A model generated the notes under the pieces. That model searched no databases, was not told the origin of the DNA, and saw only the letters and a list, made by a program, of their open reading frames with translations. DNA of 64,000 nt from a virus. Below, in pieces: positions 41,320-64,000 of the stretch. Position numbers and translations under genes: made by a program. The DNA lies in the IMG/VR virus record IMGVR_UViG_3300035523_000133, positions 695 to 64,694 of that record; one strand, written 5' to 3'. The first letter of the stretch is position 1, and each line of letters begins with the position of its first letter.

Positions 41320-41529
41320 GTGGTGACTATCGGACGTAAACCGTTGGTGAAAGGGGTCCGCCAGGCCGACATCGACCCGGCACAGCGTGAGGGCACCAAG
41401 TTCAAGCAGGTCCGCATGTCTGAGTTGCTGATCAAACGCATCGAGGCGTATGCAGAGGCTAACGGCCTCAAGAGCCGGCCCGCCGCCATCGCTCACGCCC
41501 TGGACATCGCAGAAGGCAGACCAAAATGA
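41320..41529 (+). CDS. Ribbon-helix-helix (CopG-like) regulator
   Basis: KQVRMSELLIKRIEAYAEANGLKSRPAAIAHALD; GGGAGG SD. Confidence 0.7.
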   Translation: MVTIGRKPLVKGVRQADIDPAQREGTKFKQVRMSELLIKRIEAYAEANGLKSRPAAIAHALDIAEGRPK

Positions 41530-42066: not shown

Positions 42067-42126
42067 CTACCAAAGGCCAGCCGGGGGCCATAATACCCGG
42101 CGCAGTAAGAAAGGGGTTGGCGAGAA

Positions 42127-42342
42127 ATGAAGAAGGCTGAGCACGTCGCCGCAATCCGCGAACTCTGCCAGAAGCACGCCGCCACGGTGGCCGCCGTAAA
42201 GGCCGCCTGCGAAGCGGAGAGGGCCGAACTCCAGGCTGTCATCGACAACTACGCCACCGCCCTGGATCGTCAGGATGCCCTGATTGCTCACCTCGAAGAG
42301 CTGCTCAAGGCAAACGGAATCGCCATCACATACCCGGCCTAG
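42127..42342 (+). CDS. Small coiled-coil protein
   Basis: 71 aa, SD. Confidence 0.6.
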   Translation: MKKAEHVAAIRELCQKHAATVAAVKAACEAERAELQAVIDNYATALDRQDALIAHLEELLKANGIAITYPA

Positions 42343-42453
42343 CCCCTTCGGGGGCAAAACCACGGATAAGGCGGTGCGAAGTGCTAGGCCGCCACCTTCC
42401 GAAGGGAAGGTCAAAGTGGAGCCGCTTAAGGGGATAGAGGACTTAGGAAGGAG

Positions 42454-42672
42454 TTGGCAACCGTGCCGATGTTGCAGCAAGCCGCCGAGACTGCGAAGGA
42501 GTTGGGCATCAGCGAACAGGAGGCCATGGTGCTGGAGTTCTTGGCGCTGGAGGCATGGGCCGACGTGCTGAACAGCAACAAAGGCCGGGCTGCCTTCCAC
42601 ATCGGAGCCGTGCACGCGGCCGGTAAGATGGATGCTCCGACGATGCGCAAGTGTCTGGCCCTGCTGAAATAG
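42454..42672 (+). CDS. Hypothetical protein
   Basis: 72 aa, SD; start may be GTG 42463. Confidence 0.6.
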   Translation: MATVPMLQQAAETAKELGISEQEAMVLEFLALEAWADVLNSNKGRAAFHIGAVHAAGKMDAPTMRKCLALLK

Positions 42673-42726
42673 TCTCAGTCTCCCCTCCCACTCCTATAGG
42701 GGGGGTATAGAAAGGAAGGATCGACC

Positions 42727-43540: not shown

Positions 43541-43594
43541 TCCGCTCCCCTTCCCTAATGCAACCGATGCCGGGTCACAAGCCCCGGAGGTGGA

Positions 43595-43864
43595 ATGCAG
43601 AGTGGGGATAGAAAGGGGGCTTCGATCGTGTTCATACTGCGGCTCCTGGACAACAAGGATCAGGTATCGGCCACTCACTGGCGCCGTGTTGCCGACAAAA
43701 CCACCGCCATCGAAGACGCCCGCAAGTGGGTTGCCGAATCCACCGGTGCCGATCCGTGGGCGTTTGTCACGGACGACGGCCGCGAGAATGCGGGGCGAAC
43801 GGTGTTCTTGATCGACCGTAGCCGGGAGTGGTCAGTGGAAGACCTGTCGCAGCCTGTAGCCTGA
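43595..43864 (+). CDS. Hypothetical protein
   Basis: GGAGGTGG SD. Confidence 0.6.
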   Translation: MQSGDRKGASIVFILRLLDNKDQVSATHWRRVADKTTAIEDARKWVAESTGADPWAFVTDDGRENAGRTVFLIDRSREWSVEDLSQPVA

Positions 43865-46024: not shown

Positions 46025-46588
46025 TTAGGTGCCGGTAGGCATCACGATATCCGATTCGACTTCGTTGCCCCACACGGACCATCCGGGGCGCTTGCGCCGG
46101 GCGAACATTTCCAGCCGGGGCTCGTACCAGTAACGTTCGGCGACGCGGTAACTGTGCTCAGGTTTTTCGCTGTGCTCTGTGACGGGCGCCGAAAACCAGG
46201 TGGGCTGCACCTTCACCAGCGGTTTCACCTGTCCTTTTACCCCCAGGAGCATGTGTTCCGTGGCGCCGCGAAGCCAGTAGCCGCACCCAACGAAGGGTGT
46301 CACCCAGTCGTTCTGCGTCTTAGCCCACGTCACCATGCCTTTGTAGGTAAAGCCCCAGTGCTCCAGCAACTCAAAGCCGCGAGCCATCAGCGGGTTGACA
46401 ATCCAAAGCCAGAGCACCGCATTGTCTGCGGCGAGTCCCGGCACCGGCAGGGCTTTAATGTCCGCGAACTTCATGGTTGGGTAGTGCCGCTCACCCGCTC
46501 CTAGCCATCCCGTTCCGGGGGTTTCGGTCTTCCGCGTCTCGTACGAGTACATCCAGGGCGGGTCCGCCATAATGGTCGAAAACTTCAC
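46025..46588 (-). CDS. MT-A70 family N6-adenine methyltransferase
   Basis: ADPPW, HYPTM, LWLW, WGF.Y, GYWLRG.TEH.L, HSEKP, LEMFAR; GTG start after GGAGG. Confidence 0.92.
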   Translation of the reverse strand: MKFSTIMADPPWMYSYETRKTETPGTGWLGAGERHYPTMKFADIKALPVPGLAADNAVLWLWIVNPLMARGFELLEHWGFTYKGMVTWAKTQNDWVTPFVGCGYWLRGATEHMLLGVKGQVKPLVKVQPTWFSAPVTEHSEKPEHSYRVAERYWYEPRLEMFARRKRPGWSVWGNEVESDIVMPTGT

Positions 46589-46650
46589 CGCGAACCCTCC
46601 CCGTCTCAAAAAGTGCGGCTACCCCTCCCCGCCCCGGTTCTGTCACACCC

Positions 46651-49764: not shown

Positions 49765-50007
49765 TTACTCCTCCTTTATCTCCCGAACGGGAACCCATAC
49801 CTGCCGGGCCCGGTTGCGGATGTGGTGAATAGGGCGTCCGGTCGCTTCAAGGTGGTTCAGGCACTTCTGGATGGTCTCGGTCGAAAAGTGCAGTCCTGCC
49901 GCCATTTCCTTGTGGGAAGGCTTCCGGGCCTCGCAAACCAGGTAGTCGTGAATCCACTCGTATAGGCGGTCGGCCTTCTGCTCCAAAGTCTCGTCGGCCA
50001 CGCTCAT
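49765..50007 (-). CDS. LexA-DBD-like winged HTH protein
   Basis: LYEWIHDY...KPSHKEMAAGLHFS.ETIQKCLNHLEATG. Confidence 0.75.
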   Translation of the reverse strand: MSVADETLEQKADRLYEWIHDYLVCEARKPSHKEMAAGLHFSTETIQKCLNHLEATGRPIHHIRNRARQVWVPVREIKEE

Positions 50008-50147
50008 TCGCCCTCCTTACAGGGGGAGACGGGGAATCCGATGGGTTTAGCACCGACCCCGCCCTCCCTGTGGGTAGTGGCGTAAGGCCTTATAGGTTTC
50101 GCTGTATCTCTAAGCCTCCGGGCTGTGCCCTGGTAGGCGGTTGATGA

Positions 50148-50327
50148 CTACTTGGACGATTGAACTGATTCGCGGCCTCGGTTGGCCCACTCAACTTTCG
50201 GGATGATTTGCGGCCCGCGCAGTTCGACCGTCACATCGCCGTAGCCGGTTTCGCCGTGGGCTTTACGGACGGCCGCCCGGATTGGGGCCATGAGAGCGTC
50301 TAACTCCTGTTCGCTCAACTCGGGCAT
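50148..50327 (-). CDS. DUF2292-like small protein (59 aa)
   Basis: IRAAVRKAHGETGYGDVTVELRG; below track cutoff. Confidence 0.55.
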   Translation of the reverse strand: MPELSEQELDALMAPIRAAVRKAHGETGYGDVTVELRGPQIIPKVEWANRGRESVQSSK

Positions 50328-50351
50328 GGGTGTATCACTCCTTGGTGGTCG

Positions 50352-50531
50352 CTATCGGTGGTTTTCTTCCGCCGGGTAGGGGTCTGCCAGAGCGCTGTCG
50401 ACGTAGGTGTTCCACTGTTCTTGAGTCATTCGCGGGCGGATCGTTCTGGCGGCTTTGCGCTCCTCCCGAAGCACCAGCCACAGCACGAAAGCGGCGCCGC
50501 ATCCAAACCCAACAACGAACACTTCGCCCAT
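50352..50531 (-). CDS. Small membrane protein (59 aa)
   Basis: GGAGGAG SD; N-terminal TM. Confidence 0.5.
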   Translation of the reverse strand: MGEVFVVGFGCGAAFVLWLVLREERKAARTIRPRMTQEQWNTYVDSALADPYPAEENHR

Positions 50532-50544
50532 CCTTGTCTCCTCC

Positions 50545-50994
50545 TTACTCCTTGGTCTCTCCAGTAGGCGGGGGTGGCGGGGTCTCCTCCTTCGGTCTGC
50601 GGAACATGTCCATGATCGTCCACGCTGCGAGTTTCACGCCTTGCCACGCTTCCACCTGGTTGGGCACCAGTCCGCTTCGGGCACACCGCTCCTTGACTTC
50701 GGCGGTCTGCTGAATCCATTCCGTATGCTGCTCCAGAGCGTCCATGTCGGGCTTCGATATCGTCACGGTCCCCTCTGGGGGCTGTATCAGACCAAGGACC
50801 GTTGCGGCTTTGGCGATGAGTGCCATGTCGCTGTTCACGTCCACGATAGGGGCGGCTTCGTTCAGCAGTCTGAACCCGGTCGCCGTGGTTCCAAAACACC
50901 AGTGTTCGATGTATGTGGACCGCGAGGTGAGCAGGTGAAACCCGATGCCCTCCAGAGCGGCCCGCGTCTCTGGGCTGGTAGGCAGATGTGTCAC
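50545..50994 (-). CDS. Hypothetical protein
   Basis: 149 aa, coupled. Confidence 0.6.
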   Translation of the reverse strand: MTHLPTSPETRAALEGIGFHLLTSRSTYIEHWCFGTTATGFRLLNEAAPIVDVNSDMALIAKAATVLGLIQPPEGTVTISKPDMDALEQHTEWIQQTAEVKERCARSGLVPNQVEAWQGVKLAAWTIMDMFRRPKEETPPPPPTGETKE

Positions 50995-51419
50995 GGTCTC
51001 TCCTCCTCTCTCCCTTGGGATGGGGCTGCCGCTTCGATGGTGCTTTTTTGCTGCATCCTTGCCACCTGCCTATCTACCCTGTCGGCAGCTTCCTGGAGGC
51101 GGGCAACGGCATCTTCCTTGGTTTCACCCCAAGCGTCGATGCACGGTAGGCCAGCATGGTACGGCAACGGCCTTCTGAGCCACGGGACAGGAATGTCCAC
51201 CGAAGGCGTAACGAGCACTCTTCCGGCCAATCGGTTCCTGGCCTCGTCCAATTGCCTCTGTAGGCCCTCGATGGTGGCGAGGGCGCCGCCCATGTCCACG
51301 GCGTACCACTCCGCGAACCCAAGTTCTTCTGTCGGGTCGGCCATCCGTTGGGCGATACCCAACCGGTCCCGGACTGCGGCTATTTGCTCGCCGGTGAAGG
51401 GCTTGTACTCCTGGGTCAT
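50991..51419 (-). CDS. Hypothetical protein
   Basis: Start MTQEY after GGAGGTG. Confidence 0.6.
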   Translation of the reverse strand: MTQEYKPFTGEQIAAVRDRLGIAQRMADPTEELGFAEWYAVDMGGALATIEGLQRQLDEARNRLAGRVLVTPSVDIPVPWLRRPLPYHAGLPCIDAWGETKEDAVARLQEAADRVDRQVARMQQKSTIEAAAPSQGREEERP

Positions 51420-51601
51420 GGCGTCTTCACCTCCTGGGGTGCTGTAGGGGGCCATACCGCGTCATGCAGGGCCTTGATATGCTTGTCGCATGAGCGCCCA
51501 CATCTGGCCTGCTCAAATCGGCAGTCGGGGCAGTTCTCAATTTCTCGGAGGATGGGGCGGCATCTCTCGATGGGAGACGGTCCCCACTTAGGCTCATCCA
51601 C
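51416..51601 (-). CDS. Small Cys-rich protein
   Basis: CPDC...C...C..H; GTG start. Confidence 0.5.
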   Translation of the reverse strand: MDEPKWGPSPIERCRPILREIENCPDCRFEQARCGRSCDKHIKALHDAVWPPTAPQEVKTP

Positions 51602-51944
51602 CGTTCTTGCCGCCTCCCTCCTGGTGCTTCTGGGCCATGAGCCGGTCAATCTCAGCAGCGATGAGGGCGCCAGCCTTGACGAGATTGCGGATTGCGTCCG
51701 TGCTCGGCTTCCAGTAAGGGTCATCCCACGGCCAGAGGCGCGGTACGCCCTCCCCGGCGCGGTAGCCGTCGCTGAACGTGACGCAGTTCGGCCCGTACTG
51801 GGTGGCCTCGGCGGCGTAGGCGTAGCAGATTGCGGCCTCCACAAGTTCCTCGCGCTTGTGCTGTGCGTCGTGCTTCGCTGTCCAGCCTTCAACCTCGATT
51901 TGCCGCTGCCGTTCGGCGGCGATCAGTTCAACACCCTTGCTCAT
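51594..51944 (-). CDS. Ead/Ea22-associated-type phage protein
   Basis: IAAERQRQIEVEGW...HD...ELVEAAICYA...WPW...WKP...NLVKAGALIAAEIDR. Confidence 0.8.
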   Translation of the reverse strand: MSKGVELIAAERQRQIEVEGWTAKHDAQHKREELVEAAICYAYAAEATQYGPNCVTFSDGYRAGEGVPRLWPWDDPYWKPSTDAIRNLVKAGALIAAEIDRLMAQKHQEGGGKNGG

Positions 51945-52270
51945 GTTGTCTTCCCTCCTTGGGGTTCCTGGGGCTTTAGGGCGGCCTCTGCGATGGTCTG
52001 CAAGTCTTGGATGTCGGTGACATGCCAACCGCCTGTCGTTAGGCGGCTGCGGGGCATCTCTGCGATTTCCTCCAGGGCCTTGGTCTTGCGCCCCTCTGAA
52101 TCCAGGAGGAACTGCAGGGCGTCCGCACGGCGGTCGTCTTCCTTGGGCGACTTCACCAAGCCTATCTCCCTACTGATTTCAGCCGCCCGTCGGTACTCGC
52201 CCGCCATCGTCTGCACCGTTGCCCGAACCTCTTCCCGGCTCATGGGTTCCTTGGGGGTCTGCTCATCCAT
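51941..52270 (-). CDS. Hypothetical protein
   Basis: 109 aa, SD. Confidence 0.6.
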   Translation of the reverse strand: MDEQTPKEPMSREEVRATVQTMAGEYRRAAEISREIGLVKSPKEDDRRADALQFLLDSEGRKTKALEEIAEMPRSRLTTGGWHVTDIQDLQTIAEAALKPQEPQGGKTT

Positions 52271-52685
52271 GGTTCTGTTCGCCTCCCTTCGCCTTCAGGG
52301 TGAACCCCTTCGGGCGCTGCGACTCCATCGCCCCACACTCTTTCCAGGGCACGGCACCGATGGGGATGGCGCCCGCTACGATTTTGCCGTCCAAGGTGAT
52401 GGACTCGAAGTGCAGACGGTCACACCACGCCCGCCAGAAGACCGACCGCAGCCCCAGGGCGTTGGTGAACCACATCCGGCGTACCTGGTCGAAGACTTCG
52501 CGGAGTCGGACTTCGATGGCGTCCGCTTCGGCCTCCGTGATGTTGGGGCTCACACCCTCGAAGGCGAAAATGCCGTTGTCGATGTTGTAGGCCACTTCAA
52601 GGGTGATGCCGTCCAGGGCGTTGGGTTCGTCAGCCTTTTGTTCAGCCGCGGGTTCCTGCGGGGTCTTGGGCTCCTCTACACTCAT
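52263..52685 (-). CDS. Hypothetical protein
   Basis: 140 aa, coupled. Confidence 0.6.
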   Translation of the reverse strand: MSVEEPKTPQEPAAEQKADEPNALDGITLEVAYNIDNGIFAFEGVSPNITEAEADAIEVRLREVFDQVRRMWFTNALGLRSVFWRAWCDRLHFESITLDGKIVAGAIPIGAVPWKECGAMESQRPKGFTLKAKGGEQNHG

Positions 52686-52948
52686 GGAGTGACCCCCTGC
52701 CCTGTAGCCGCACAGACTTCCTTGGGAACCCCCTCAAATCCAGCGCTGGAGTACCCAGGATTGACGTTTATCCAGCACCCGCCCGTCCACGCGTCATGCA
52801 GAATCTGCACGTAGGGGGTGCTCTGCTCATACACCACCACGAACCGCTTAGGCGTGTTGGCCGCCGCCTTGGTGTCACATCCCTGCGTTCCGAGGATGAT
52901 GCCGACCACCGCCCCAACGAACAACGTTGCTATAATCACCCATTTCAT
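52682..52948 (-). CDS. Small exported/lipoprotein-like protein
   Basis: Signal-like N-terminus, TQGC. Confidence 0.6.
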   Translation of the reverse strand: MKWVIIATLFVGAVVGIILGTQGCDTKAAANTPKRFVVVYEQSTPYVQILHDAWTGGCWINVNPGYSSAGFEGVPKEVCAATGQGVTP

Positions 52949-52963
52949 CCGCTTGCCCTCCCT

Positions 52964-53164
52964 CTATGTCGGGCCGGGGTTTTTCGCCTCGGTTGCCGCT
53001 TCTTTGAGCCGTTTCTCCAGCGTGTCCAGCGGTTCGGAAGCGGCCTCGTAGTCCGTGTTGTCTCGCTCGTCGTGGACCATGACTACGCCTTTCGCTGTCA
53101 GCTCCACCTCGCCGCCTCGGGCTAGAATCCAGGCATCCATGATGGTGCTCAGGGTTTTACTCAT
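52964..53164 (-). CDS. Hypothetical protein
   Basis: 66 aa, coupled. Confidence 0.55.
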   Translation of the reverse strand: MSKTLSTIMDAWILARGGEVELTAKGVVMVHDERDNTDYEAASEPLDTLEKRLKEAATEAKNPGPT

Positions 53165-53523
53165 GCCGTAGCCTCTCGTCTTGCCTGGCGCCCGGGGCGT
53201 CCGGGGGCGATTCCGAGTTCGCGCAGTCGCTTACGTACATGGTCCCGGTTGGTGTGCCCGAGTGCCGCCGCCACCGCCCGGATGGTCCGAAGTTCCCGAA
53301 AGAGTTGCAGGAGCATGTCGTCGGCAGGAAGGGCGGTGTTCTCGGGCTTGGGGCCGGCGCCGGAACGCCCGGGTGGAACACCGGCCCGCCGGAGTCGCCT
53401 GGCTACCCAACAGTGATCGACGTAGCCCGCCGCCCGAGTCACCCGGGTGATGCTCCCCTCCTGGACGAGGAGGTCAAGTAGTTCCGAGTCGCTTACCCAT
53501 GGGCCGCGTCCGGTCTGGGGCAT
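53161..53523 (-). CDS. Tandem HTH protein
   Basis: Two SD..LL.L...gsi..VA..lG...V..RLR..GI repeats. Confidence 0.65.
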   Translation of the reverse strand: MPQTGRGPWVSDSELLDLLVQEGSITRVTRAAGYVDHCWVARRLRRAGVPPGRSGAGPKPENTALPADDMLLQLFRELRTIRAVAAALGHTNRDHVRKRLRELGIAPGRPGRQARREATA

Positions 53524-53536
53524 TGTTAGTCCTCCC

Positions 53537-54118
53537 TCAAACTTCGGTCGATGCAAACGAACCCGCGGAGCTTTCGCCTTTTTCTACGATTAGGTGATCG
53601 CCGGGCTTGAGTGCGCGCCCCCTCTGCAAAGGGCCAACACGGACTCGGAAGCGGCGATAGCAGCTAAGGCTGCAAAACTTGGCTTTGCGCGGGGATGGTT
53701 GGATGAACACTTTCCCGCATTCTGCGCAGACGATGGCCGGTCTTGGGGTCTGGGAAGACAGGAGCATTCCTGAACTAAACTGGATGCCGCGTTTGTGGAC
53801 CATGAGATGATGACTGGCGCAAAGCCAGGCGACATTCTCGTGTGAGTTGTTCATAGGGTTTCCGTCGATGTGATGACGATGGACACCTTTCTTGTCGCAG
53901 TTGCCAACTTCGCATGTTTTGGGCTCGGGGTAGATCCGTTGGCATCTCTGGTGACCAGTAGTTTCTGGCGCAGTACTGACGACCCCGACCCAAGCCGGGT
54001 GGTTCTCCATGCGTCCGAAACGGCACCGAGCGCACATCCGCGCCGAACGTGTCATAAGTCGGCCACATATTGGGCACGGAATCTTGTAGTCGTCGAGGTT
54101 CTTGTGTGGCATTGCCAT
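53537..54118 (-). CDS. HNH endonuclease with Zn ribbons
   Basis: CPICG, HRHHIDGNPMNNSHENVAWLCASHH, CAECGK..FCS..C. Confidence 0.85.
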   Translation of the reverse strand: MAMPHKNLDDYKIPCPICGRLMTRSARMCARCRFGRMENHPAWVGVVSTAPETTGHQRCQRIYPEPKTCEVGNCDKKGVHRHHIDGNPMNNSHENVAWLCASHHLMVHKRGIQFSSGMLLSSQTPRPAIVCAECGKVFIQPSPRKAKFCSLSCYRRFRVRVGPLQRGRALKPGDHLIVEKGESSAGSFASTEV

Positions 54119-54335
54119 CCCCTCCGGCTACAGTGTCCGTCACGTCTGGCATACACACGTGTGGTCACGTCCGCCAAGAATGCGATCAGTACACGTAATT
54201 CCGCCGCCCGTCCTTGCGCTGGTGGTATTTCAAGAGCGTGTCGCAGTTCAGGCAGTGCGTGGCTTCGGCCAGCATTCGCCGAACCTCGGGGTCGTCCGTC
54301 TCCGCAATCCGTTTGGCCAACCAGTCTCTCTCCCC

Positions 54336-54755
54336 TCAGTCCGCCGCATGGGCCAACAGTTGCTTGGCTGTATCCCTACCCGCTTCGGTGATTGTCCACG
54401 CTATCGGGTCGTTGCACGTCGTGCCCGACTGGCTGGCGACATAGCCCTTTGACTCCAGCCGCCGGCCCATCGACCGGATTCCCGAGGATTCCTTCCCCGT
54501 CGCAGGTGCCAGTTGGGCGGTAGTAGTTGTCCCGTGGCGGTAGAGGTGGACCAGTATCAACTCCTCGGTGGCGGTCACCCGGAGTCGGCCTCGAAGCACC
54601 CGCTCCCAGGACATCCCTTGGGCTTTGTTGATTTGCGGTCCCAGTCCCTTCCCGTGCGAGAGTTGACCGTGGAGGTAATGCTTGTAGAGTTGCAGCCTGC
54701 CGGGGTCTGGCCGTCCGGGTAGGGGTTCCTCGTTTAGAAACCAAGGAGTCGCCAT
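54336..54755 (-). CDS. Winged-helix DNA-binding protein
   Basis: ILVHLY...TTAQLA..TG...IRSMGRRLESKGYV...WTITEAGR. Confidence 0.65.
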   Translation of the reverse strand: MATPWFLNEEPLPGRPDPGRLQLYKHYLHGQLSHGKGLGPQINKAQGMSWERVLRGRLRVTATEELILVHLYRHGTTTTAQLAPATGKESSGIRSMGRRLESKGYVASQSGTTCNDPIAWTITEAGRDTAKQLLAHAAD

Positions 54756-54762
54756 GGGGTAC

Positions 54763-56412
54763 TCATCTCTTTCCTGCCGCTGCGGCGTCGTTCGCTTCCG
54801 CCTCTTCGAGGAGAGCGAACAGTCCGCCGTTGTAGGGTTTCGTGTCGGTCTTGCGTTTTTGCCGTGCCCGTCCGGTCAACCGGGCTTCGATGATGGACAG
54901 GTTCCGCTCGTCCAGATCGATGCCTATGGTTGTAGGGGCGCAATAGTCGCCATCCACCGTTACGGGCTTCACCGCTTCGTTCACGCCCTGCGCTGTGGAG
55001 CCGCTGCCGAAGAAGGGGTCAAGGGCGATTGCGCCTTCATAGCCCGCTCCACATCCGCAGTCGGTGTAGCCGATGATGTGCCCGACGAGTACCGGACCCA
55101 TCCGCAAATCGTGGTTCGCCCGTACCTGCCCCGCCAATCCGGGATCCAGATTCTTGCCTCCGATTTCGCCCGGTTGCCGCCCCGCCCGACCGCTGCCGCC
55201 CCGGTACTCCCGGCTCACCGCATATACCGCTTGCCGGGGGCACCCGCACCTTTTGCAGATGGCCTGCGGTATGGTCGCCTTCGCCGGGATTTCACAGATG
55301 CCGGGCGGGTAGCAGGCAAAGTGGGCGAGAGGGAAGGGTGAAAGCGGCACGAACCACAGGTCGCCCGGGTTGCGTCCGAGGGGGTTGTCGATACGTTCCG
55401 CCTGGCTTGTCCGCCCGAGACCGTTGACGCCTGTTTTGCCCTCTGTGTAGGTGCTGCCAGACAAGCCTTTGACCATCGGCTCCCGGATTTCGTCCAGGTT
55501 GTAGAAGTAGTCCTCAGAAACCCACAGGGGCCTCTGCTTGGGCTTGCCGTTGGGCAGGTATACCTGATTGCCCGCCTCGTCCAAAACGGGCTCGTACTCC
55601 TGCCTGGGCTTCTTGGTGACTACTTTGCACGTCTGCTGGTGAACCCACCTGACCGGCTTGTTGGACCTGACGAAGTGATACCACTGCTCCCAGGTCTCTT
55701 TGAGCCGGTCCTCTGCCGAGATGGGCATTCCGTTGCTCGTCAGGGCGACGGTTTCGCTGTCGTCCGGGCGATCGGTGGCATCCTTGCCTTTGAACCAAAT
55801 GGGCTTGTTCCGGCAAATCCAGCCCCGGTCAATCATGGCGATGAGGAAACGCTCAGGAATGGCCGTCAAGGATTTGCGGGGGATGGATGACTTTCCGGGC
55901 TTCCATTTCGGTTGGCCTTCTCGCAGACCGCCTTCGTTGTAGTCACCGCCTGCACCACCGCTGCCTGACCACGTATCCCCGAGGTTCACCCAGAGGCTTC
56001 CGTCCGGTCGTAGTAGCGTGTCGCCGATTGCACAGAACAGGTCGACCAGTTTGACGATGAACTCTTGGGGATTGCTCTCGCTGCCGATTTGCCGATCCAC
56101 GTACCGAGCGCCACAGGTTGGGCACACTCCGCCGGTCCGTTGGAGCCACTTCGCAGCATTGGCGGAAAGTCCGTTGCCAGACCCCACGCCATCGCTGCCG
56201 GGGTCGTCTGCCCACGCCGGCGGTTGGTGCTTGCAGGACGGGTCGCCCCCTACCCATGAGCCCGTGCCGTAATTGCGCTTCCACAGGTACGGCGGCGAGG
56301 TAATCACGGCGGAGACCTTATGCGGACAGCGTTCGGCAAGGCGCTTGACGGTCTCCAGAGCGTCCCCGATGTAGACCTCTACGCCGGGCAGGGTCAGACG
56401 TGGCTCAATCAC
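54763..56412 (-). CDS. Beta-class amino-MTase (SPPY, likely N4-cytosine) with Zn-finger insertions
   Basis: GDALE, ITSPPY, NLGD, WICRNKPIWFK, RNPGDLW, HFACYP, LDPFFGSGST, GIDL; GTG start after GAGGAG. Confidence 0.9.
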   Translation of the reverse strand: MIEPRLTLPGVEVYIGDALETVKRLAERCPHKVSAVITSPPYLWKRNYGTGSWVGGDPSCKHQPPAWADDPGSDGVGSGNGLSANAAKWLQRTGGVCPTCGARYVDRQIGSESNPQEFIVKLVDLFCAIGDTLLRPDGSLWVNLGDTWSGSGGAGGDYNEGGLREGQPKWKPGKSSIPRKSLTAIPERFLIAMIDRGWICRNKPIWFKGKDATDRPDDSETVALTSNGMPISAEDRLKETWEQWYHFVRSNKPVRWVHQQTCKVVTKKPRQEYEPVLDEAGNQVYLPNGKPKQRPLWVSEDYFYNLDEIREPMVKGLSGSTYTEGKTGVNGLGRTSQAERIDNPLGRNPGDLWFVPLSPFPLAHFACYPPGICEIPAKATIPQAICKRCGCPRQAVYAVSREYRGGSGRAGRQPGEIGGKNLDPGLAGQVRANHDLRMGPVLVGHIIGYTDCGCGAGYEGAIALDPFFGSGSTAQGVNEAVKPVTVDGDYCAPTTIGIDLDERNLSIIEARLTGRARQKRKTDTKPYNGGLFALLEEAEANDAAAAGKR

Positions 56413-56449
56413 CGGGGCCTCACTCCTCACTTCGCCGCCGTGTTTGCCG

Positions 56450-56686
56450 TCATGATGAATGGGACTCCTCTGGAGTGGGGATGGGCAGTACCGCTGCCAG
56501 GGCGTCGTTTTTTGCTCTCGCCAAGGTGTTGGCCGCCCCCGTTGCAATGATCTTGCCGGTGACCTCGCAGACAACCGCCCAGGGGTATTCTTCGGGGCCG
56601 TGCTCTTGAACGCTCAGAAGCAAGGGGTCGATGCTCCACTCCCACACAACACCCAGCAGTCGCCCAACTTTACGCTCCCAGGTCAT
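56450..56686 (-). CDS. Hypothetical protein
   Basis: Start MTWER. Confidence 0.5.
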   Translation of the reverse strand: MTWERKVGRLLGVVWEWSIDPLLLSVQEHGPEEYPWAVVCEVTGKIIATGAANTLARAKNDALAAVLPIPTPEESHSS

Positions 56687-56705
56687 CGCTCTTAGGGGCC
56701 TCCTC

Positions 56706-57200
56706 TCAGCCTGTCCGCTTCTCGCTGTCCGCCGGTCTGCTCGCACCAGGGATGCCGTCCCGCTTCGTCTCAGGATCAGGCCACAGACGGTCAATGGTGG
56801 CCATCACCTTGGGCTCCGCGGCCTGGACGATTGCGGCTACGGCCGCCTCTTCTCGTTCCGCCCTCAGCCTCTCGATGAAGAAGGGCCAGAGGTGTTCCGC
56901 CATGTGCCCGAGGCGCTTTTGCACTTCGTCTAGCGTCTTCTGCGTCCGAAGGGAAACGGTGTTTGAGACCGTCTGCTCCAGGCAACTCGTCAGATAGTCC
57001 GCACTAATCCGCAGCAGGAACGCCTTGAAGTCCGGGCCGGGGGCCGACCACCGGGCAGCGTAGATGCCGAAGTCGCCGTGGATTTGCAGCAGACCAAGTG
57101 CGGGGGCGATTGTGAAGTAGCCGTACCACCCATGCTTCGGATGCTTGACGTAGTAGCACTCAGCCGCGAACGGCTTGGTTAGGTCGATGTCCTTGCCCAT
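56706..57200 (-). CDS. Hypothetical phage protein
   Basis: Start MGKDI after AGGAGGAG; LQIHGDFG.Y. Confidence 0.6.
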   Translation of the reverse strand: MGKDIDLTKPFAAECYYVKHPKHGWYGYFTIAPALGLLQIHGDFGIYAARWSAPGPDFKAFLLRISADYLTSCLEQTVSNTVSLRTQKTLDEVQKRLGHMAEHLWPFFIERLRAEREEAAVAAIVQAAEPKVMATIDRLWPDPETKRDGIPGASRPADSEKRTG

Positions 57201-57213
57201 CTGTTTGCTCCTC

Positions 57214-57522
57214 CTATCGGCTCTCGCCGGGAACGCCGTCCTTGACCCAGACCCATTGTTCGTGTCCGGCATCGCTGGCGATCTGCCCCGCATCGGCGTA
57301 GGACGGGGCCTCCACCTGAACAACCTTAACGCTCCGCGGGTGTCCACCCGTCGGGCTGTACACAGTTATCGCCTGGGGCGCCTTGTCGGGGAGGTACGCA
57401 CCAAGGAAACAACTGCCGCCCGTCAGCGTGCGGACTCTCATCCCGCCTGAGCAGTCTTTTCTGCCTTTGGGTCCCCTTGTGCAGTGCAAACAAGGAACAC
57501 TCTGGCAATCGGGTTTCGGCAC
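57214..57522 (-). CDS. Small Cys-containing protein
   Basis: CQSVPCLHC; SD. Confidence 0.55.
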   Translation of the reverse strand: MPKPDCQSVPCLHCTRGPKGRKDCSGGMRVRTLTGGSCFLGAYLPDKAPQAITVYSPTGGHPRSVKVVQVEAPSYADAGQIASDAGHEQWVWVKDGVPGESR

Positions 57523-57525
57523 GTT

Positions 57526-57723
57526 CTACTCCTCCTTTGGCTTACGCTTGGCCGCTCGTTCCGCTTTGCGTTCGGCCTTCACCGCCGCATTCAACCAGTC
57601 CAGCGTCATCAGGGAGACGGTCCGGGGACTGAGGGGAATGCCTGACTCCGTTACCGCTACCTTGACTTTATCCAGAGCCTCGCAGATGGTTTGCGGCTCC
57701 AGCATTCCAAGCAGGTGATTCAT
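57526..57723 (-). CDS. Hypothetical protein
   Basis: 65 aa, coupled. Confidence 0.55.
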   Translation of the reverse strand: MNHLLGMLEPQTICEALDKVKVAVTESGIPLSPRTVSLMTLDWLNAAVKAERKAERAAKRKPKEE

Positions 57724-58430
57724 CGTTCTTGTGCCCTCCTATCTGCTAACCAGGTCCCGTAACAGTAGGTATCCATAACGGGTCGAACCTCTGCCGGGTC
57801 CAACCGGATGCCGTCTTGTGGCGGGTTCGCTTTGGCGCCCTTCTCCCGAGTCAGGCGGAGCAGGTCCGCTTTTGCGTCGGCGCCGGGGTCGGTGTGATCA
57901 AGCCATTCGTGGAAGTCCGCACACGCCGGGAGGTTGTTCCAGTCCTCGTTGCGGGTCGATTCGGCGCCTCGGGGGATCAGATGCGCCCGGCTGATGAGCC
58001 CCTTCCCCGGTACCCCATCCACTCCGGGCCGTTGGTGGGCGTTGCATCCGCAGACACAAGGCAGGATGTGGACGGCGGCTTCGCATCTGCGATCGGCCAG
58101 TTTGAGCCGCCGTGCGCGTCGGCCCTCTCGTTTCAGGGTGGTGTTGCGGTTGACGCGTCCCCGGACGTATGTAAGGCCACCCTTGGCGTAGCCGATGACG
58201 TTCCGCCCGAGAATCTTCACGGCTTGCAGCCGCGTGTATCGCCGCAAAGGCTTGCGCTGCCGCCGCTTTTTGGGTTTCTCCTTTTGCCGCTGTTGATGGC
58301 GCAGGATCTCAGGAACCGTTGCCAGTTTCAGGGGGCTGATTTCTTTGGGCTTCCCGGTGGCCTTGCCCTTCTGTCGAAAGCCGCTCGACTCCCGGCGCTC
58401 TCGCGGTTCGGGCTTCGGACAAGCCTGCAT
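57720..58430 (-). CDS. Basic protein with C-terminal HNH-like (NinG/DUF968-type) domain
   Basis: RCE...CVCGC...RAHLIPRG...NNLPACADFHEWLD. Confidence 0.6.
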   Translation of the reverse strand: MQACPKPEPRERRESSGFRQKGKATGKPKEISPLKLATVPEILRHQQRQKEKPKKRRQRKPLRRYTRLQAVKILGRNVIGYAKGGLTYVRGRVNRNTTLKREGRRARRLKLADRRCEAAVHILPCVCGCNAHQRPGVDGVPGKGLISRAHLIPRGAESTRNEDWNNLPACADFHEWLDHTDPGADAKADLLRLTREKGAKANPPQDGIRLDPAEVRPVMDTYCYGTWLADRRAQER

Positions 58431-58449
58431 ACCGGGTCACCCCCTCCTC

Positions 58450-59793
58450 TCAGTTCCCGAGGACTTCCGCCCTGATGGTGTCCGCCAGGTCCGGATCGCC
58501 GCCGTCATGCTCCCACCAGTGCTTGATCCATCGGATATCGTCGTCGGTCACCGTCTTGAATCCCGGCAGTCCCTTCTCGATTTCGAACAGGTCCCGGAGG
58601 AATTCCGCCCTGACTCCCAGCAGGTAGGGGCCGGGGGTCACGTCGGTTGACGATGCTCCTGTCGTCATGGCGGCTTCGGTCCACCTCACACCGGCCAGGA
58701 AGGCTAGGAGTTGTGTCGTGGGGACCTCGCCCGCTGCCGCCTCCCAATCCTGTCCTGACGGTTTGTAGTGCTCCCGCTCTGCCCACCGGGCGCCTGTTTC
58801 GAAGGCGTCGATCGAGGCTTCGTCCTCGCCAGCGTGGACCTTGGCCGCCATCGTCCGGGCCGTGCAGTTCAGTCGCAGTCGCCCGTTTCGCCCGATTGGG
58901 TCCCGCTTGCTGTAGTCGTTGCGATACCGCAGAATCTTGTCCCGGAAGGCGAGGAGCGGAGCGTACTCAGGGGTCACGACGCGAACCATGTTTCGCATGG
59001 AGATGTCCTCGGGTACGACCGTGCAGACGAAGCAGCCGAACCGGGAACCGCCGCAACTGGCCGTCCGCCGGTCGAAATCGAGCACGCATTCGCCGCCGTG
59101 GGCGCCCTGGTACATCTCGAAAAGTTCCTCGTTGCTGCCGCCCCAAGGCTTGGGGAACAGTCGCAAATACTCCCATACGTTATCGTTATCCCATTCCTGG
59201 ATGGGCTGGAAGCTGATTCCTTCGGTCAGGCTGCCGCAGGTGCCGAACTTGCCTTCGATGGCGTGCGCCTCGATGCTGGCACCCCGGGCCTTCGATTCCT
59301 TCTTGCGGCTGCCCAGGAGTTGGAGAATGCGCCCACTCTTGTCGATGTTGGCCCTGACCCACGTTTCCGAGGGTTCGATCTTCAGGCGGCCGGTGCACCA
59401 CCGGAAATCCTGGGTGGGTGCTGGGTAGCCCCGGCCGATCAGGCAGACCCAGAAGGATTGCTTGGGATCTGGCGTCACCTTGACCACCGTCACCGGCAGG
59501 TCGTATCGGGTCGCCACATCCCGCAGTTCGGCGTGGCACTTGTCCAGCCAGGTCGCCACCGCGGGGTTCTCGACCAGCGTGTCGGAGGAGACCACATAGA
59601 CCGGCTTCGTCCGCTGCTCCGCAGGCAGGGCCATCAGCATCCGGTAGGTGAGTTGGACCACTGCGGAGGAATCCTTGCCGCCTGAGAATCCAATCACCCA
59701 GGGTCGCCCGTCTGGCCGCAGGTAAACCTCCCGCATCTCCGCTACCAGGGCGTCTATCACCGGTTGCTCGACCGGCTCATGGTCGAAGTCCAT
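58450..59793 (-). CDS. dndC: DndC-like DNA phosphorothioation sulfurtransferase (PAPS-reductase fold); possible ACG start at 59820
   Basis: PWVIGFSGGKDSS, VYVVSSDTLVENP, SFWVCLIGRGYPAP...FRWCT.RLKIEPS, LLGSRKKES..R, PWGG.N..L..MY.GA..GEC, CG.SRFGCFVCTVV.ED.SM, GPY. Confidence 0.88.
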   Translation of the reverse strand: MDFDHEPVEQPVIDALVAEMREVYLRPDGRPWVIGFSGGKDSSAVVQLTYRMLMALPAEQRTKPVYVVSSDTLVENPAVATWLDKCHAELRDVATRYDLPVTVVKVTPDPKQSFWVCLIGRGYPAPTQDFRWCTGRLKIEPSETWVRANIDKSGRILQLLGSRKKESKARGASIEAHAIEGKFGTCGSLTEGISFQPIQEWDNDNVWEYLRLFPKPWGGSNEELFEMYQGAHGGECVLDFDRRTASCGGSRFGCFVCTVVPEDISMRNMVRVVTPEYAPLLAFRDKILRYRNDYSKRDPIGRNGRLRLNCTARTMAAKVHAGEDEASIDAFETGARWAEREHYKPSGQDWEAAAGEVPTTQLLAFLAGVRWTEAAMTTGASSTDVTPGPYLLGVRAEFLRDLFEIEKGLPGFKTVTDDDIRWIKHWWEHDGGDPDLADTIRAEVLGN

Positions 59794-59908
59794 GCGGAGT
59801 TGCCGCAGTTGCCTGGCCGTTGGTCTCGCCTCCCGTTCACCGTAATTTCGTTCCTGTCAACCCGGCCCTTGGACTCCGTCCCTCTCCGCTCGGGTATCCC
59901 CTAGGGGT

Positions 59909-60457
59909 TCAGGCGGTTTTCCGCCGCTTTTCACGAGGGGGCACCGTCCGTACCTGAAGCCGTTGCCGTGCCCAGTTGACCCGGCTTTTGACCGTGCCTA
60001 TCGGGATGCCCAGCCGTTTGGCGACTTCTTCGAAATGCACGCCCTCAGCAATTGGGATGAGACAGGCCGCTTCTTTGGGCGTCAGTAGTCGGCGGACCTC
60101 GGCCAACTCCTCACGGATGATTACCTCGTCCTCAATGCTTTGCGGGGTGGGGAGTGGCGCTGCAGTCTCCAGAGACACCGTTTGCGTTTCGCCTTGCTTG
60201 CGCCGCATGGTCCGCACCCGATCGTTACAGAGTTGCCCCACCACCCTGAATAGCCAGTGGCGGAGGTGCTGAGAGTCCTGGACGCTCCCGGCGTGACGCC
60301 ACAGGCGGACGAACGTGTCCTGGACAATCTCCTCCGCGTTCTCCCAATTGTGAACGTAGTCGTTGGCGTAGCGTTCCAGCCGACCACGCCAGTAAGCCAT
60401 CAGCGGTTCCCAGGCCATTTCGTCACCCGCCGCGAGCCTCGCCAGAATCTCCTCCAT
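59909..60457 (-). CDS. ECF-type sigma-70 factor
   Basis: AEEIVQDTFVRLW...WLFRV...CNDRVR; region 4 FEEVAKRLGIPIGTVKSRVNWARQRL. Confidence 0.92.
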   Translation of the reverse strand: MEEILARLAAGDEMAWEPLMAYWRGRLERYANDYVHNWENAEEIVQDTFVRLWRHAGSVQDSQHLRHWLFRVVGQLCNDRVRTMRRKQGETQTVSLETAAPLPTPQSIEDEVIIREELAEVRRLLTPKEAACLIPIAEGVHFEEVAKRLGIPIGTVKSRVNWARQRLQVRTVPPREKRRKTA

Positions 60458-60481
60458 CTCCCTCTGCCCTCCCCTTCTCCC

Positions 60482-62239
60482 TTAGCCGAAGTTGAACTTG
60501 GGTTGCTCGATATCCGCTCCGACCCGTGCCTTTGCGATTCGAACGTAGTCGGGATCCCGCTCGATCAGTGTGCAGTCGAACCCTTCCGCTTCGGCGGCTT
60601 TTGCAGTCGTGCCGGATCCGCCGAAGGGGTCTAGTGGTTTGCCGCCCGGCGGAGTCACCAGTCGCACCAGCCAGCGCATCAGCCCGACCGATTTGATTGT
60701 GGGGTGGAAGTTGCGGGCCGCTCGCTTCGTTCCCTCAGCCTGGAATGTGCCAGGGTTCGCCTCGCCGCTTGACCAGTTCAGCGGCTTTTCCTCCAGGGCT
60801 TCGCAGCCTCGGTTCCTTTCGCTTCGGCTGGCCTTCGCGGCGTAGAGGAAGATGGCTGTCTGAATGTCTTCGGGCTCCCATGCGAACTGTGGAAAAAAGC
60901 GAGATGCTCCGCCTTGGTCCTCGTACTCCGCTCCGGTGTGGGTCATGCCATACCCGTTGCCCGGTTGCGCCGATGCTCTTGGTTGACCTTTCCGGCTTGC
61001 GCTTTGCCCGCTCTGGCGGTCCAATTCGAGTACCGGGCATCCTCCAGCACATTCCCAGGCTTCGACCGTCTCCATGCCATTCTCGTCAGCACGGTCGCCG
61101 TCCCACTTGCGGGTCCCAATCGGTTGGTCTGGGTTCAGAATCCCGCCCTTGGAGGTGCTACCGCCGGTCTGCGCCCATCCGCTGCCGCCCTTCACGGTCT
61201 TCGTCCCCGCCCTGCGGCAGTCTGCATGGTGGGTCAGTACCAGATTCGCAGGAAACCGTCCAAGCGATTCGGCCTTGGCGACGTTACGCCCGATGCGCTC
61301 ATTCGCAGCTTCCATCGCTTCCTCGTCGTGCTTCCAGGGTCGATCCCATCCGTCCGAATCACTGCTTGTCCGCCCTCCATCGAGGCTTTCGCCGGGCTGG
61401 GTCTTGATTCGGCACCCGTCTATGTTGAGCGCCCCTACGCCATGCTTCAGGAGGTTTTCCGCCACGGTGTCTTCGCTCGGGGGCTTGCGGACGAGGAGCC
61501 ACTGTTCTTGGGATGGCTTGATGTCCGTGCCGAACCCTTCCCACTTCGCCGCCTCGGGTGAGCCGGGCGCTGTAATGGCCTCCTGCTGCCCGGCGTAGTC
61601 CGGGGCGCTCTGGAATTGCAGCCCGTCGCTGCCTATGTAGGGGTTGCGCTGTTCTCTGAAGCCGATTACAAATCGCTTTCCGACCGGTGGCCCCCAGACG
61701 GTCGTGGCAATCACGCACCACTTCCAGGCCCATCGGTCTTTGGGAACGCTGGTCCAGAGCCGCTTTGCCCACCGTATCGCCTTTGGTCTGTGCTCCATCA
61801 GCCATTCGGTGAAGAGCATGAAGTCGATGGCTTTTGACACATCCAGGCTTTTCGGGAAACCCGAACCAAAAAGGTGTTGGATTGAATTACGAATTTCGAA
61901 CCCCGCCGCCCGCAGGCCCAGCCCGGTCAGGTCCGCCGTCCGGGGAAGTGCCCAGACCACCCCGTAAGCGCCGGGCTTCAGGAGTCGCAGGGCCTCCGTC
62001 GCCCAGTCCGCTGTGAAGGCTACGAATCCTGCTTCCCACGGCTCAAGGGCGAGTACCTGCAGGCTTTCCAGGACGGCCCGGCCCTTCTCCGACTTCGGCA
62101 CGTACTTGCTGTGAGAGTCCCACGCCTTGCCCATGAAGCTGACCCCCGCCGGCGGGTCCGTCACCAGGGAGTCGAACGACTCGGGCGGTAACGTCGGCAT
62201 GATGTCCATGTTGTCGCCCTGCAGTATCTGGTAGTCCGT
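60482..62239 (-). CDS. Beta-class amino-MTase (DPPA motif, likely N6-adenine); conserved domain begins upstream of first ATG (62209), ACG at 62239
   Basis: YQILQGDN, VTDPPAG..FMGKAWD, FGSGFPKS, GRFPAN, FHPTIKS, LDPFGGSGTT, IERD. Confidence 0.88.
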   Translation of the reverse strand, partial: TDYQILQGDNMDIMPTLPPESFDSLVTDPPAGVSFMGKAWDSHSKYVPKSEKGRAVLESLQVLALEPWEAGFVAFTADWATEALRLLKPGAYGVVWALPRTADLTGLGLRAAGFEIRNSIQHLFGSGFPKSLDVSKAIDFMLFTEWLMEHRPKAIRWAKRLWTSVPKDRWAWKWCVIATTVWGPPVGKRFVIGFREQRNPYIGSDGLQFQSAPDYAGQQEAITAPGSPEAAKWEGFGTDIKPSQEQWLLVRKPPSEDTVAENLLKHGVGALNIDGCRIKTQPGESLDGGRTSSDSDGWDRPWKHDEEAMEAANERIGRNVAKAESLGRFPANLVLTHHADCRRAGTKTVKGGSGWAQTGGSTSKGGILNPDQPIGTRKWDGDRADENGMETVEAWECAGGCPVLELDRQSGQSASRKGQPRASAQPGNGYGMTHTGAEYEDQGGASRFFPQFAWEPEDIQTAIFLYAAKASRSERNRGCEALEEKPLNWSSGEANPGTFQAEGTKRAARNFHPTIKSVGLMRWLVRLVTPPGGKPLDPFGGSGTTAKAAEAEGFDCTLIERDPDYVRIAKARVGADIEQPKFNFG

Positions 62240-62327
62240 TGCGTTCGCCTCCCTTACGTATCCCCTCGGGCCTTCCGTAGTCGTAGTCTATTGGCAGGTC
62301 ATCGTCCCAGGGGTCTTCCATGGGGAC

Positions 62328-62606
62328 TCAACTCCTTTGGGGCAACGGGATGTTGAACCGCTTCGGGTCGTGTACGGCACAGAGGGGGTTGTGCCATTCC
62401 TTTGGCGTCAGGCGCATACTGCCGTTGTACCGGTTGATGTACCGGGTCCGACACTTCCCGTCCTCGGTGTAGCCCATCACCACCATGAGCATGGCGGACT
62501 CCTTGGCGTCGGCGTCGTGGATGACCGGAGCGCCCGGCGGCCACTGCACGGTGTTGGGCTCGTAGTTCAGACTGCCGCCGCATTCGGGGCACTTGGGCCA
62601 CTCCAT
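62328..62606 (-). CDS. Zn-ribbon hypothetical protein
   Basis: CPECGG; SD. Confidence 0.6.
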   Translation of the reverse strand: MEWPKCPECGGSLNYEPNTVQWPPGAPVIHDADAKESAMLMVVMGYTEDGKCRTRYINRYNGSMRLTPKEWHNPLCAVHDPKRFNIPLPQRS

Positions 62607-62626
62607 TACTCAGCCCTCCCTGCCCG

Positions 62627-63037
62627 TCAGAACGGGACATCATCGTCGTCGGTGAACTTGGGTTCGCTGCCCCCGGCGGGCGTCGTCTTCGGCCCGCTTG
62701 CATGTTCGCCGTCGTCCTTGCCCTTGTCCAGGAAGCGGACCGTGGAGGCGACTACCTCTGCCTTCTCCCGCTTCTGGCCTTCCCGGGTCTCGTACTGGCG
62801 GATTTGGAGCCGCCCTTGGACCGCCACCAGCCGGCCCTTTTGCAGGTAGTTCGCGGCGGTTTCGGCGGTCTTTTCCCAGACCACGCAATCTATCCAGTCC
62901 ACCTCGTTATTGCCTTGGGGGTCCTTGGTGCCCCTGTCGACTGCCAGACGCAGAGTGGCAACCGCCTTGCCGCTGGTCGTATACCTGAGTTCCGGGTCCT
63001 TGGTTAAGCGGCCGATCAGGACCACTGTGTTAAGCAT
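62627..63037 (-). CDS. ssb: Single-stranded DNA-binding protein
   Basis: LNTVVLIGRLTKDPELRYT.SG...LAVDR...KGRLVAVQGRLQIRQYE, DDDVPF tail. Confidence 0.97.
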   Translation of the reverse strand: MLNTVVLIGRLTKDPELRYTTSGKAVATLRLAVDRGTKDPQGNNEVDWIDCVVWEKTAETAANYLQKGRLVAVQGRLQIRQYETREGQKREKAEVVASTVRFLDKGKDDGEHASGPKTTPAGGSEPKFTDDDDVPF

Positions 63038-63040
63038 GGG

Positions 63041-63334
63041 TTACTCCTTCCTCTCCCCTTCTGGGGGCGTCGTACCGACCGCCATCCGTTGCGCCGCGAA
63101 AGCCTGCGTTGCCGCCGTTCTCACCGCCTGAAGGCGATTCTCCAAGTTAGCCGCCGCCGTCTTCGCCGCTTCACTGGCAGCCTGGGGATTGTCGTAGCCG
63201 ACGCCGCAGCCCATCTCACCGGACCGCCCGATTTCGTAGCCCCACCGACCGGCGGTGAACTCGCTTTCCACGATGGCGACTGTGTACCGCCCGTCCACCT
63301 TGCCGACTACCTTGCGCTTTCGCTTGGTGCTCAC
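63041..63334 (-). CDS. Hypothetical protein
   Basis: 97 aa, coupled. Confidence 0.55.
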   Translation of the reverse strand: MSTKRKRKVVGKVDGRYTVAIVESEFTAGRWGYEIGRSGEMGCGVGYDNPQAASEAAKTAAANLENRLQAVRTAATQAFAAQRMAVGTTPPEGERKE

Positions 63335-63759
63335 TCTTTGGCACCCCCTTCCGCTTTGGTCTGACCAGGTTCGACTGAACCGGCAGACCGCTTGGTTGCC
63401 TCCGTTCGCAACTCCCGCATGAACCAGACCTGGGCATACGGGTAAAACCTCCGGAACACGGCGCTAACCGTCTCCAGGGAGACCATCCCTGTCATCTGTG
63501 CCTTCAGGGACGCCAGTTCTGCGGCTACATCCTTGTAGCGGAGTAGGGCAGGAAGGTCGGTGATATCGCCTTCGACCTTCGCCTCAAAGCGGTGTCCGTC
63601 GTATGTCCGCATGATGGCGAGTTGTTCGTCCATCTGCCGGTCGTTGAGCCGGTCGTAAAGAGGGTATTCGTCGTCCGACTGCCGCAGGGCAAACCCGAAC
63701 GCTTCCGGTCTCATCCCTCGGGCGTTCACCTCGGCGATGATTTTCTGCTGCTCTCCCAT
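63331..63759 (-). CDS. Hypothetical protein
   Basis: 142 aa, SD. Confidence 0.6.
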   Translation of the reverse strand: MGEQQKIIAEVNARGMRPEAFGFALRQSDDEYPLYDRLNDRQMDEQLAIMRTYDGHRFEAKVEGDITDLPALLRYKDVAAELASLKAQMTGMVSLETVSAVFRRFYPYAQVWFMRELRTEATKRSAGSVEPGQTKAEGGAKE

Positions 63760-63777
63760 AGCCCTAACCCCTTTCCG

Positions 63778-63999
63778 CTACGCCGTAGCCGCCGGCTTCT
63801 GTGCAAGTTCGTCTCGTAGGTGCGCCTGCAAGATGGGGAACAGTTCCCTGACGAAACTCCGGGCGTCCGGCGGGAAGTCCATGACGGCCAGTTCGTAGCC
63901 GTCTCGCTCACAGAACTCTTGCTGTTCCATGACCCAATGCATCAGGTCGTCAGTAAATAGCACGTCGTCCCAAAGTTCCTTGGCCCGGTCCTTGGTAAC
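63778..63999 (-). CDS. Hypothetical protein, 5'-truncated by window edge
   Basis: Frame open to the end of the window. Confidence 0.5.
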   Translation of the reverse strand, partial: VTKDRAKELWDDVLFTDDLMHWVMEQQEFCERDGYELAVMDFPPDARSFVRELFPILQAHLRDELAQKPAATA

Positions 64000-64000
64000 G

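Follow-up and report, generated by a model that had tools for sequence, protein, structure and literature searches.

An ACG start codon has been described for the tape-measure gene of mycobacteriophage Corndog, in which ACG occupies the position of the ATG of sister phages and no canonical start lies before the N-terminal peptides identified by mass spectrometry (PMC4351075). The same arrangement was examined here for two genes of a virus, encoding a beta-class DNA methyltransferase and a DndC-like protein, in a stretch of 64,000 nucleotides (IMG/VR record IMGVR_UViG_3300035523_000133, positions 695 to 64,694), called the window in the following. For Corndog the peptides were detected, ACG is common to three phages, expression is undiminished and bypassing is possible (PMC4351075). 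In contrast, our case concerns two non-structural DNA-modifying genes of one genome and is known from the sequence alone.

Comparable leaders were reported for ccpN, cvfC1, citZ and infC of Staphylococcus aureus, also belonging to the Bacillota, where a strong Shine-Dalgarno (SD) sequence precedes a near-cognate codon and the output is lowered (PMC13009471). These codons are AUU or AUA, they were measured and they are mostly conserved, whereas the genes in the window have ACG behind a 6-nt SD and this codon is not conserved. Phage Mu likewise encodes a DNA-modifying enzyme with a non-AUG start, as mom of the com/mom system is held down at translation initiation (PMC6483171). The GUG of mom is hidden in an inhibitory hairpin and opened by Com, but the ACG leaders are unstructured. 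No clear Com-like gene lies directly before the ACG genes: the DndC-like gene is preceded by a sigma factor gene, and the open reading frame (ORF) 62328-62606 upstream of the methyltransferase gene has a CxxC motif and a weak zinc-ribbon match below the cut-off and corresponds to hypothetical proteins in Atlas. The two ACG genes are neither a com/mom system nor a private-initiator-tRNA system.

The prophage adenine methyltransferases M.EcoGI/GII and Hia5/Hin1523 are silent in the lysogen (PMC5778455, PMC3299994), and M.EcoGII also belongs to the beta class. Their silencing is reported as transcriptional or Com-like, unlike the ACG described here. DndC of the dndABCDE phosphorothioation systems (PMC10853773) has the PP-loop and the cysteine motifs in common with the DndC-like protein; the latter belongs to a stand-alone phage clade and is encoded in a prophage without dndA/B/D/E, and its role in phosphorothioation is putative. 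A literature search on phage ACG starts with methyltransferases and on natural CGU initiator tRNAs gave nothing relevant beyond Corndog.

Both genes are located on the minus strand, and in each leader GGAGG is followed after 8 nt by an in-frame ACG heading an open frame. For the methyltransferase gene, the SD GGGAGG is found at 62248..62253 and the ACG at 62237..62239. The gene comprises 585 codons from ACG (60482..62239) and encodes an N6/N4 DNA methyltransferase (PF01555, phrog_67) with DpnA, CcrM and M.RsrI as PDB relatives. For the DndC-like gene, the SD GGGAGG is located at 59829..59834 and the ACG at 59818..59820; the 456 codons from ACG (58450..59820) encode an orphan PP-loop/Fe-S protein (PF01507; PADLOC DndC, E 4.5e-114). 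The first in-frame ATG follows 10 codons (methyltransferase) or 9 codons (DndC-like) after ACG and has no SD. No in-frame ATG, GTG or TTG was found between the upstream stop and this ATG in either gene. Leaders and starts of this kind at 59820 and 62239 had been described in a sequence-only reading of the window, and both statements hold. The Logan contig of the sole run holding the region (depth 16.6) showed 0 differences over 50000-62861; as a re-assembly, probably of the source sample, it guards against assembly error only and is no independent sample. No RNA run holding the region was listed, which is not informative on expression.

The window corresponds to contig positions C9:53747-117746 in the 6.26 Mb genome (64% GC) of a soil bacterium and covers most of a prophage. 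Among the approximately 110 genes called in this prophage, these two are the only ones with a non-canonical start, and both fall into the set of six DNA-modification genes (hypergeometric p about 0.002-0.004, calculated post hoc). The 16-nt pattern GGAGGCGA-NNN-CAACG, likewise defined post hoc, occurs at these two sites only in the whole genome. Thus, the shared leader ending in CAACGG, which had been pointed out before, proved to be unique to both sites, but GGAGGCGA itself is also present in orthologues with TTG or GTG start. The two ACG leaders resemble each other only modestly more than host leader pairs do, 0.7% of which match as well.

The orthologues give the position of the original start. 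The nearest methyltransferase gene with alignable DNA (L078), next to a sigma factor gene, has GGAGG, 8 nt and ATG. It aligns with the window gene without a gap from the SD on, with both SDs matched and ATG in the column of ACG. In L064, which is the DndC-like gene from a prophage of the host's own family, GGAGGCGA and the same spacer lead to TTG, and the number of codons up to the conserved DFDH is equal; a further orthologue (L574) carries GGAGGCGA and GTG at the same spacing. A phage gene of the DndC clade from another metagenome (L572, 1440-1500) has a strong SD and an aligned CTG, with no canonical start before the conserved block; the gene caller truncated it. Because the orthologues share the 8-nt spacer without a gap, ACG is, judging from these alignments, the replacement in place of a canonical start codon in this phage lineage. 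As GGAGGCGA precedes TTG and GTG in orthologues, it is inherited and independent of ACG. The same gapless alignments led to the rejection of a start that had lost 3 nt or 2 nt, and they also disfavour the exact loss of a start codon that had been raised as an alternative. ATG starts were read from the DNA for 2/9 members of the DndC clade, compared with 59% in neighbouring genes, which is a weak trend (p 0.03-0.13).

Searches in viral sequences were less informative. An 18-nt leader pattern gave 60 matches in viral contigs, one of which heads an ORF of at least 80 codons without upstream canonical start, 149 codons into the frame; these matches look like chance. Single-protein viral searches found distant loci only. 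The homologues P0149 and P0016 with short N-termini, lying beside a LAGLIDADG gene and a contig end, were rejected. A homologous methyltransferase gene (L575), called without N-terminus, follows a LAGLIDADG gene and is possibly intron-split.

In the methyltransferase gene, the first strand is encoded at 62233-62213, DPPA at 62158-62144 and DPFGGSG, which binds S-adenosylmethionine (SAM), at 60631-60611. DPPA, which is the consensus of the clade, stands at residue 28 and DPFGGSG at residue 537, which is the motif order of the beta class. In beta-class enzymes the adenine of SAM is contacted by the Asp that follows the first strand. The nearly invariant G8 is encoded ahead of the first ATG, and in the predicted structure the residues of this segment hold a strand (E3-7, pLDDT about 90) that matches the first strand of DpnA-type structures. 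Hence, the earlier statement that this strand is encoded before the first ATG is confirmed. In the DndC clade, Q7 before the ATG is invariant (n=16 proteins), and the ATG sits on a variable internal residue. The conserved RQL of the DndC-like protein also precedes the first ATG, and SGGKDS and the cysteine motifs are intact. Departures at invariant columns are no more frequent than in relatives (1/117; 4/100 counting the start), and pairwise dN/dS is about 0.2-0.35. By this comparison, the intact motifs and columns and the dN/dS exclude a long decay; a recent knockout also fits.

The host genome was scanned for near-cognate starts, yielding about 20 candidates with CTG, 14 with ACG and a few with ATT/ATC/ATA; many of these are noise. 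Three ACG candidates are probable starts: an HxlR-type regulator at C32:107402, for which 9/9 family orthologues have ATG/GTG; C57:21255, whose paralogue has ATG; and C12:42588, overlapping the upstream gene, with ACG in 7/8 family genomes and CTG in the eighth. C34:9673 was rejected as an ileS leader without start. C7:44312 and C32:178671, for which no orthologues were found, and C22:64024, whose N-terminus is not alignable, were not counted. In an orthologue-anchored sample of about 186 host genes, one ACG start was detected here and none in three relatives; the known case is included in this sample, which biases the figure upwards. This suggests that ACG-type starts account for less than 1% of the host genes. 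The commonest SD spacing in the host is 8 nt. Its initiation factor IF3 looks ordinary, and the IF3 gene itself seemingly has no canonical start. Furthermore, probable ATT (tadA) and CTG starts (C32:6048, C55:118823, C52:73672, C50:73927, C22:214830) lie behind strong SDs in the host; tadA orthologues have ATG/TTG nearby, and oppB-like homologues have ATG.

We favour, with a rough probability of 0.55, a leaky initiation at ACG behind a strong SD which would throttle both enzymes. The host 30S subunit would be anchored by GGAGG, which is strong, free of structure and placed at the favoured distance of 8 nt, and the ordinary initiator tRNA would occasionally pair with ACG, resulting in little Met-initiated enzyme of full length. 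ACG in place of a canonical start would then act as a fixed throttle on two DNA-modifying enzymes of a lytic early/middle operon. The yield of Met-initiated protein from ACG in E. coli is about 0.1-1% of that from AUG (10.1101/063800), and values of 10-30% were reported for AUU/AUA behind extended SDs in S. aureus (PMC13009471). A low-level initiation at ACG and a selection for it are proposed here to account for the codons, their aligned position, the intact frames and the host ACG precedents. The two genes could have been killed by 194 and 90 single-base nonsense changes, compared with one ATG-to-ACG option per gene. Since the same start change is found twice, with SDs and frames intact and many nonsense options available, a low, non-zero output fits better than a knockout. 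As a throttle and a knockout would leave an identical sequence, it is likelihood that decides between them. The sequence-only reading had left deliberate near-cognate throttling and silencing side by side; throttling is the better supported of the two by the aligned start, the intact enzymes, the sister CTG and the host ACG genes, but ACG is not conserved. The host dndBCDEA cluster and pbeC could make the dose of DndC matter to phage or host.

Several points weigh against throttling. No ACG start was found in about 145 distinct methyltransferase homologues, among which the window gene is the only one without canonical start before the first strand. The same is true for about 100 DndC homologues, so that the check for a conserved ACG was negative in about 245 homologues, all with canonical starts apart from the CTG of L572, and gave no evidence of conservation. 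The nearest relatives share no more than 56-72% identity. For E. coli, ACG ranks with the weakest starts, the S. aureus sites do not include it, and the three host cases were deduced by comparison. Moreover, four other methyltransferases of the prophage keep GTG/TTG, toxicity of the enzymes as the motive is putative, and the intact frames would also agree with a very recent knockout.

Such a knockout is the strongest rival, although we regard it as rather unlikely. Both starts would have changed from ATG to ACG recently in the lysogen because leaky expression harms the host, and no useful product would be made. The occurrence of ACG in one genome only agrees with this, and silence is frequent among prophage methyltransferases, which can also slow growth (PMC5778455; PMC3299994). 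In addition, the host encodes dndB, C, D, E, A and pbeC on contig C22, and a second DndC could interfere with them. On the other hand, there are many more ways to kill each gene, and the same start change would occur twice with a chance of about 1 in 2,400 to 1 in 19,000 by a crude count. The conserved sites are not decayed, the structural ORFs have full length and a large serine recombinase gene is present at one end. A repressed lytic operon would also offer the host little to select against.

A conditional switch is improbable. According to this explanation, ACG would be efficient only with a factor such as a CGU initiator tRNA provided in trans, C-to-U editing of the kind by which plant organelles create AUG, antagonism of IF3 or a Com-like leader-binding protein. 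The codon as a gate that opens in lytic growth or co-infection, for example through the CGU initiator tRNA of another phage, is equally improbable. In favour of a switch, both ACGs are flanked as CA-ACG-G, their common pattern occurs nowhere else in the genome and the likeness of the leaders exceeds that of most host pairs. Against this, GGAGGCGA is not specific for ACG, as noted above. A CGU-anticodon initiator tRNA was not found by five methods in the assembly, which is without some tRNA types, and this limits the negative result for the host. The only CGU tRNAs are two elongator tRNA-Thr with G1-C72, and ARAGORN, Rfam and a custom hairpin scan all gave none for the prophage. Both ACG leaders fold less than their shuffles (z +1.35 and +1.51), with open start regions in the centroid structures. 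PF00383, the one deaminase family searched, has no member in the prophage, as all four lie outside it. With an ordinary IF3 in addition, the unlocking of the genes under certain conditions, as suggested by the sequence-only reading, is not supported.

Left of the window, the prophage contains two tRNA-like genes that have CCA ends and whose anticodon arms are enlarged (L084:4258-4328 and L084:4374-4447; G000:C9:44257-44446). The second (56.9 bits on RF00005) looks like a tRNA-Gly(UCC) with two extra bases, and ARAGORN detected no tRNA-Gly(UCC) in the assembly. A decoy, a frameshift suppressor and decay are candidate explanations for these genes.

An alternative entry into the two frames is slightly less probable than a switch. 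The methyltransferase would be reached by a +1 shift from an overlapping ORF and the DndC-like protein from ATG 59793 or an in-frame CTG. The overlapping ORF (92 codons, 62043..62321, minus strand, other frame) has an SD and crosses the methyltransferase start in the right phase, and the T-to-C change is synonymous in its frame. The DndC core may also survive the loss of 9 residues. Yet the ORF has a poor coding score and no family, and no slippery site was identified, without a statistical test for one. For the DndC-like gene, no ORF in this phase lies upstream, neither its ATG nor its CTG is preceded by an SD, and the RQL before the ATG is conserved. One pattern would thus need two unrelated mechanisms, and the proposed +1 shift, possible for the methyltransferase, has no counterpart for the DndC-like gene. 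The start of the ORF (window 62255-62321, minus strand) encodes an acidic peptide resembling the tail of the single-stranded DNA-binding protein (SSB) two genes upstream. Out of frame with the ORF, a TAA stands immediately ahead of the methyltransferase SD, so that the ORF may be a frameshifted short gene.

A sequencing or assembly error or neutral chance, for which the single sample and contig-level data would speak, is very improbable, since the Logan contig has no differences, the positions coincide exactly with the orthologous starts and, at a host ACG rate of about 0.1%, two ACG starts in six modification genes have p about 1e-5 and two among 110 genes about 0.006.

The prophage occupies roughly C9:33 kb to 133 kb. 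Its replication genes lie on the left, its head and tail ORFs have full length, and on the right a large serine recombinase is found together with a 24-bp direct repeat. No tyrosine integrase was found on the prophage contig; the whole genome gives 24 large serine recombinase matches. A DndC-like protein from a member of the host family (P0005) is labelled Bacillota. The early/middle operon has the order ssb, two small ORFs, methyltransferase, sigma factor of the extracytoplasmic function (ECF) type and DndC-like gene, and no sigma-70 promoter was detected in 57500-64000. The ECF-type sigma factor gene between both ACG genes (59909..60457, minus strand) starts with ATG, and L078 has the same order of methyltransferase and sigma factor. 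No dndA/B/D/E was found in the prophage; the neighbours of the DndC-like gene are the sigma factor and hypothetical genes. The host contig C22 (L087, G000:C22:134-143 kb) carries a dndB-C-D-E-A cluster and a convergent gene of the pbeC type (PbeC-type ATPase); host DndC and the orphan prophage DndC are 45% identical over the core.

Two of the six modification genes lie outside the window. The earlier statement that the other methyltransferases start with GTG is right for both in the window, a second N6/N4 methyltransferase (54763..56412, minus strand) and an MT-A70 methyltransferase (46025..46588, minus strand); the two C5 methyltransferases outside start with TTG and GTG. The MT-A70 leader (window 46550-46640, minus strand) forms a stem over SD and GTG (z -2.09) and is nearer to the mom arrangement than either ACG leader. 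CGCG is depleted to about 0.55 of the expected frequency in host and prophage, and GATC and AGCT are among the most depleted words in the prophage. CAATGG, considered as an avoided restriction site, is not clearly depleted there (z -1.2).

At window positions 51604 and 57726 (minus strand), ACG also lies 8 nt from GGAGG, and the codon right after it, at 11 nt, is GTG or ATG. A similar leader reported at 41320 together with such sites has to be corrected, as it lies on the plus strand. A 203-codon frame at 42067-42678 (minus strand) has CTG 5 nt behind GGAGG; it has no family match, overlaps plus-strand ORFs and is possibly no gene. The sequence at 43552-43608 (plus strand) weakly matches a type-P1 twister ribozyme, with 37.5 bits, which is below gathering, and E 1.4e-4.

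ACG is not included in translation table 11, and gene callers therefore cut both proteins. The database entries comprise 447 and 575 residues, and the methyltransferase entry is without its first strand. The observation of the two codons is solid and their pairing with DNA-modifying genes unusual, as far as one genome can tell. If initiation at ACG is true, the prophage would provide a natural case of a bacterial ACG start that serves in two genes to dose DNA-modifying enzymes, and a simple alternative to control of the com/mom type. It would also provide a test case for the rescue of a poor start codon by a strong SD in Bacillota. If the genes are silenced, they would be a minor example of prophage domestication.

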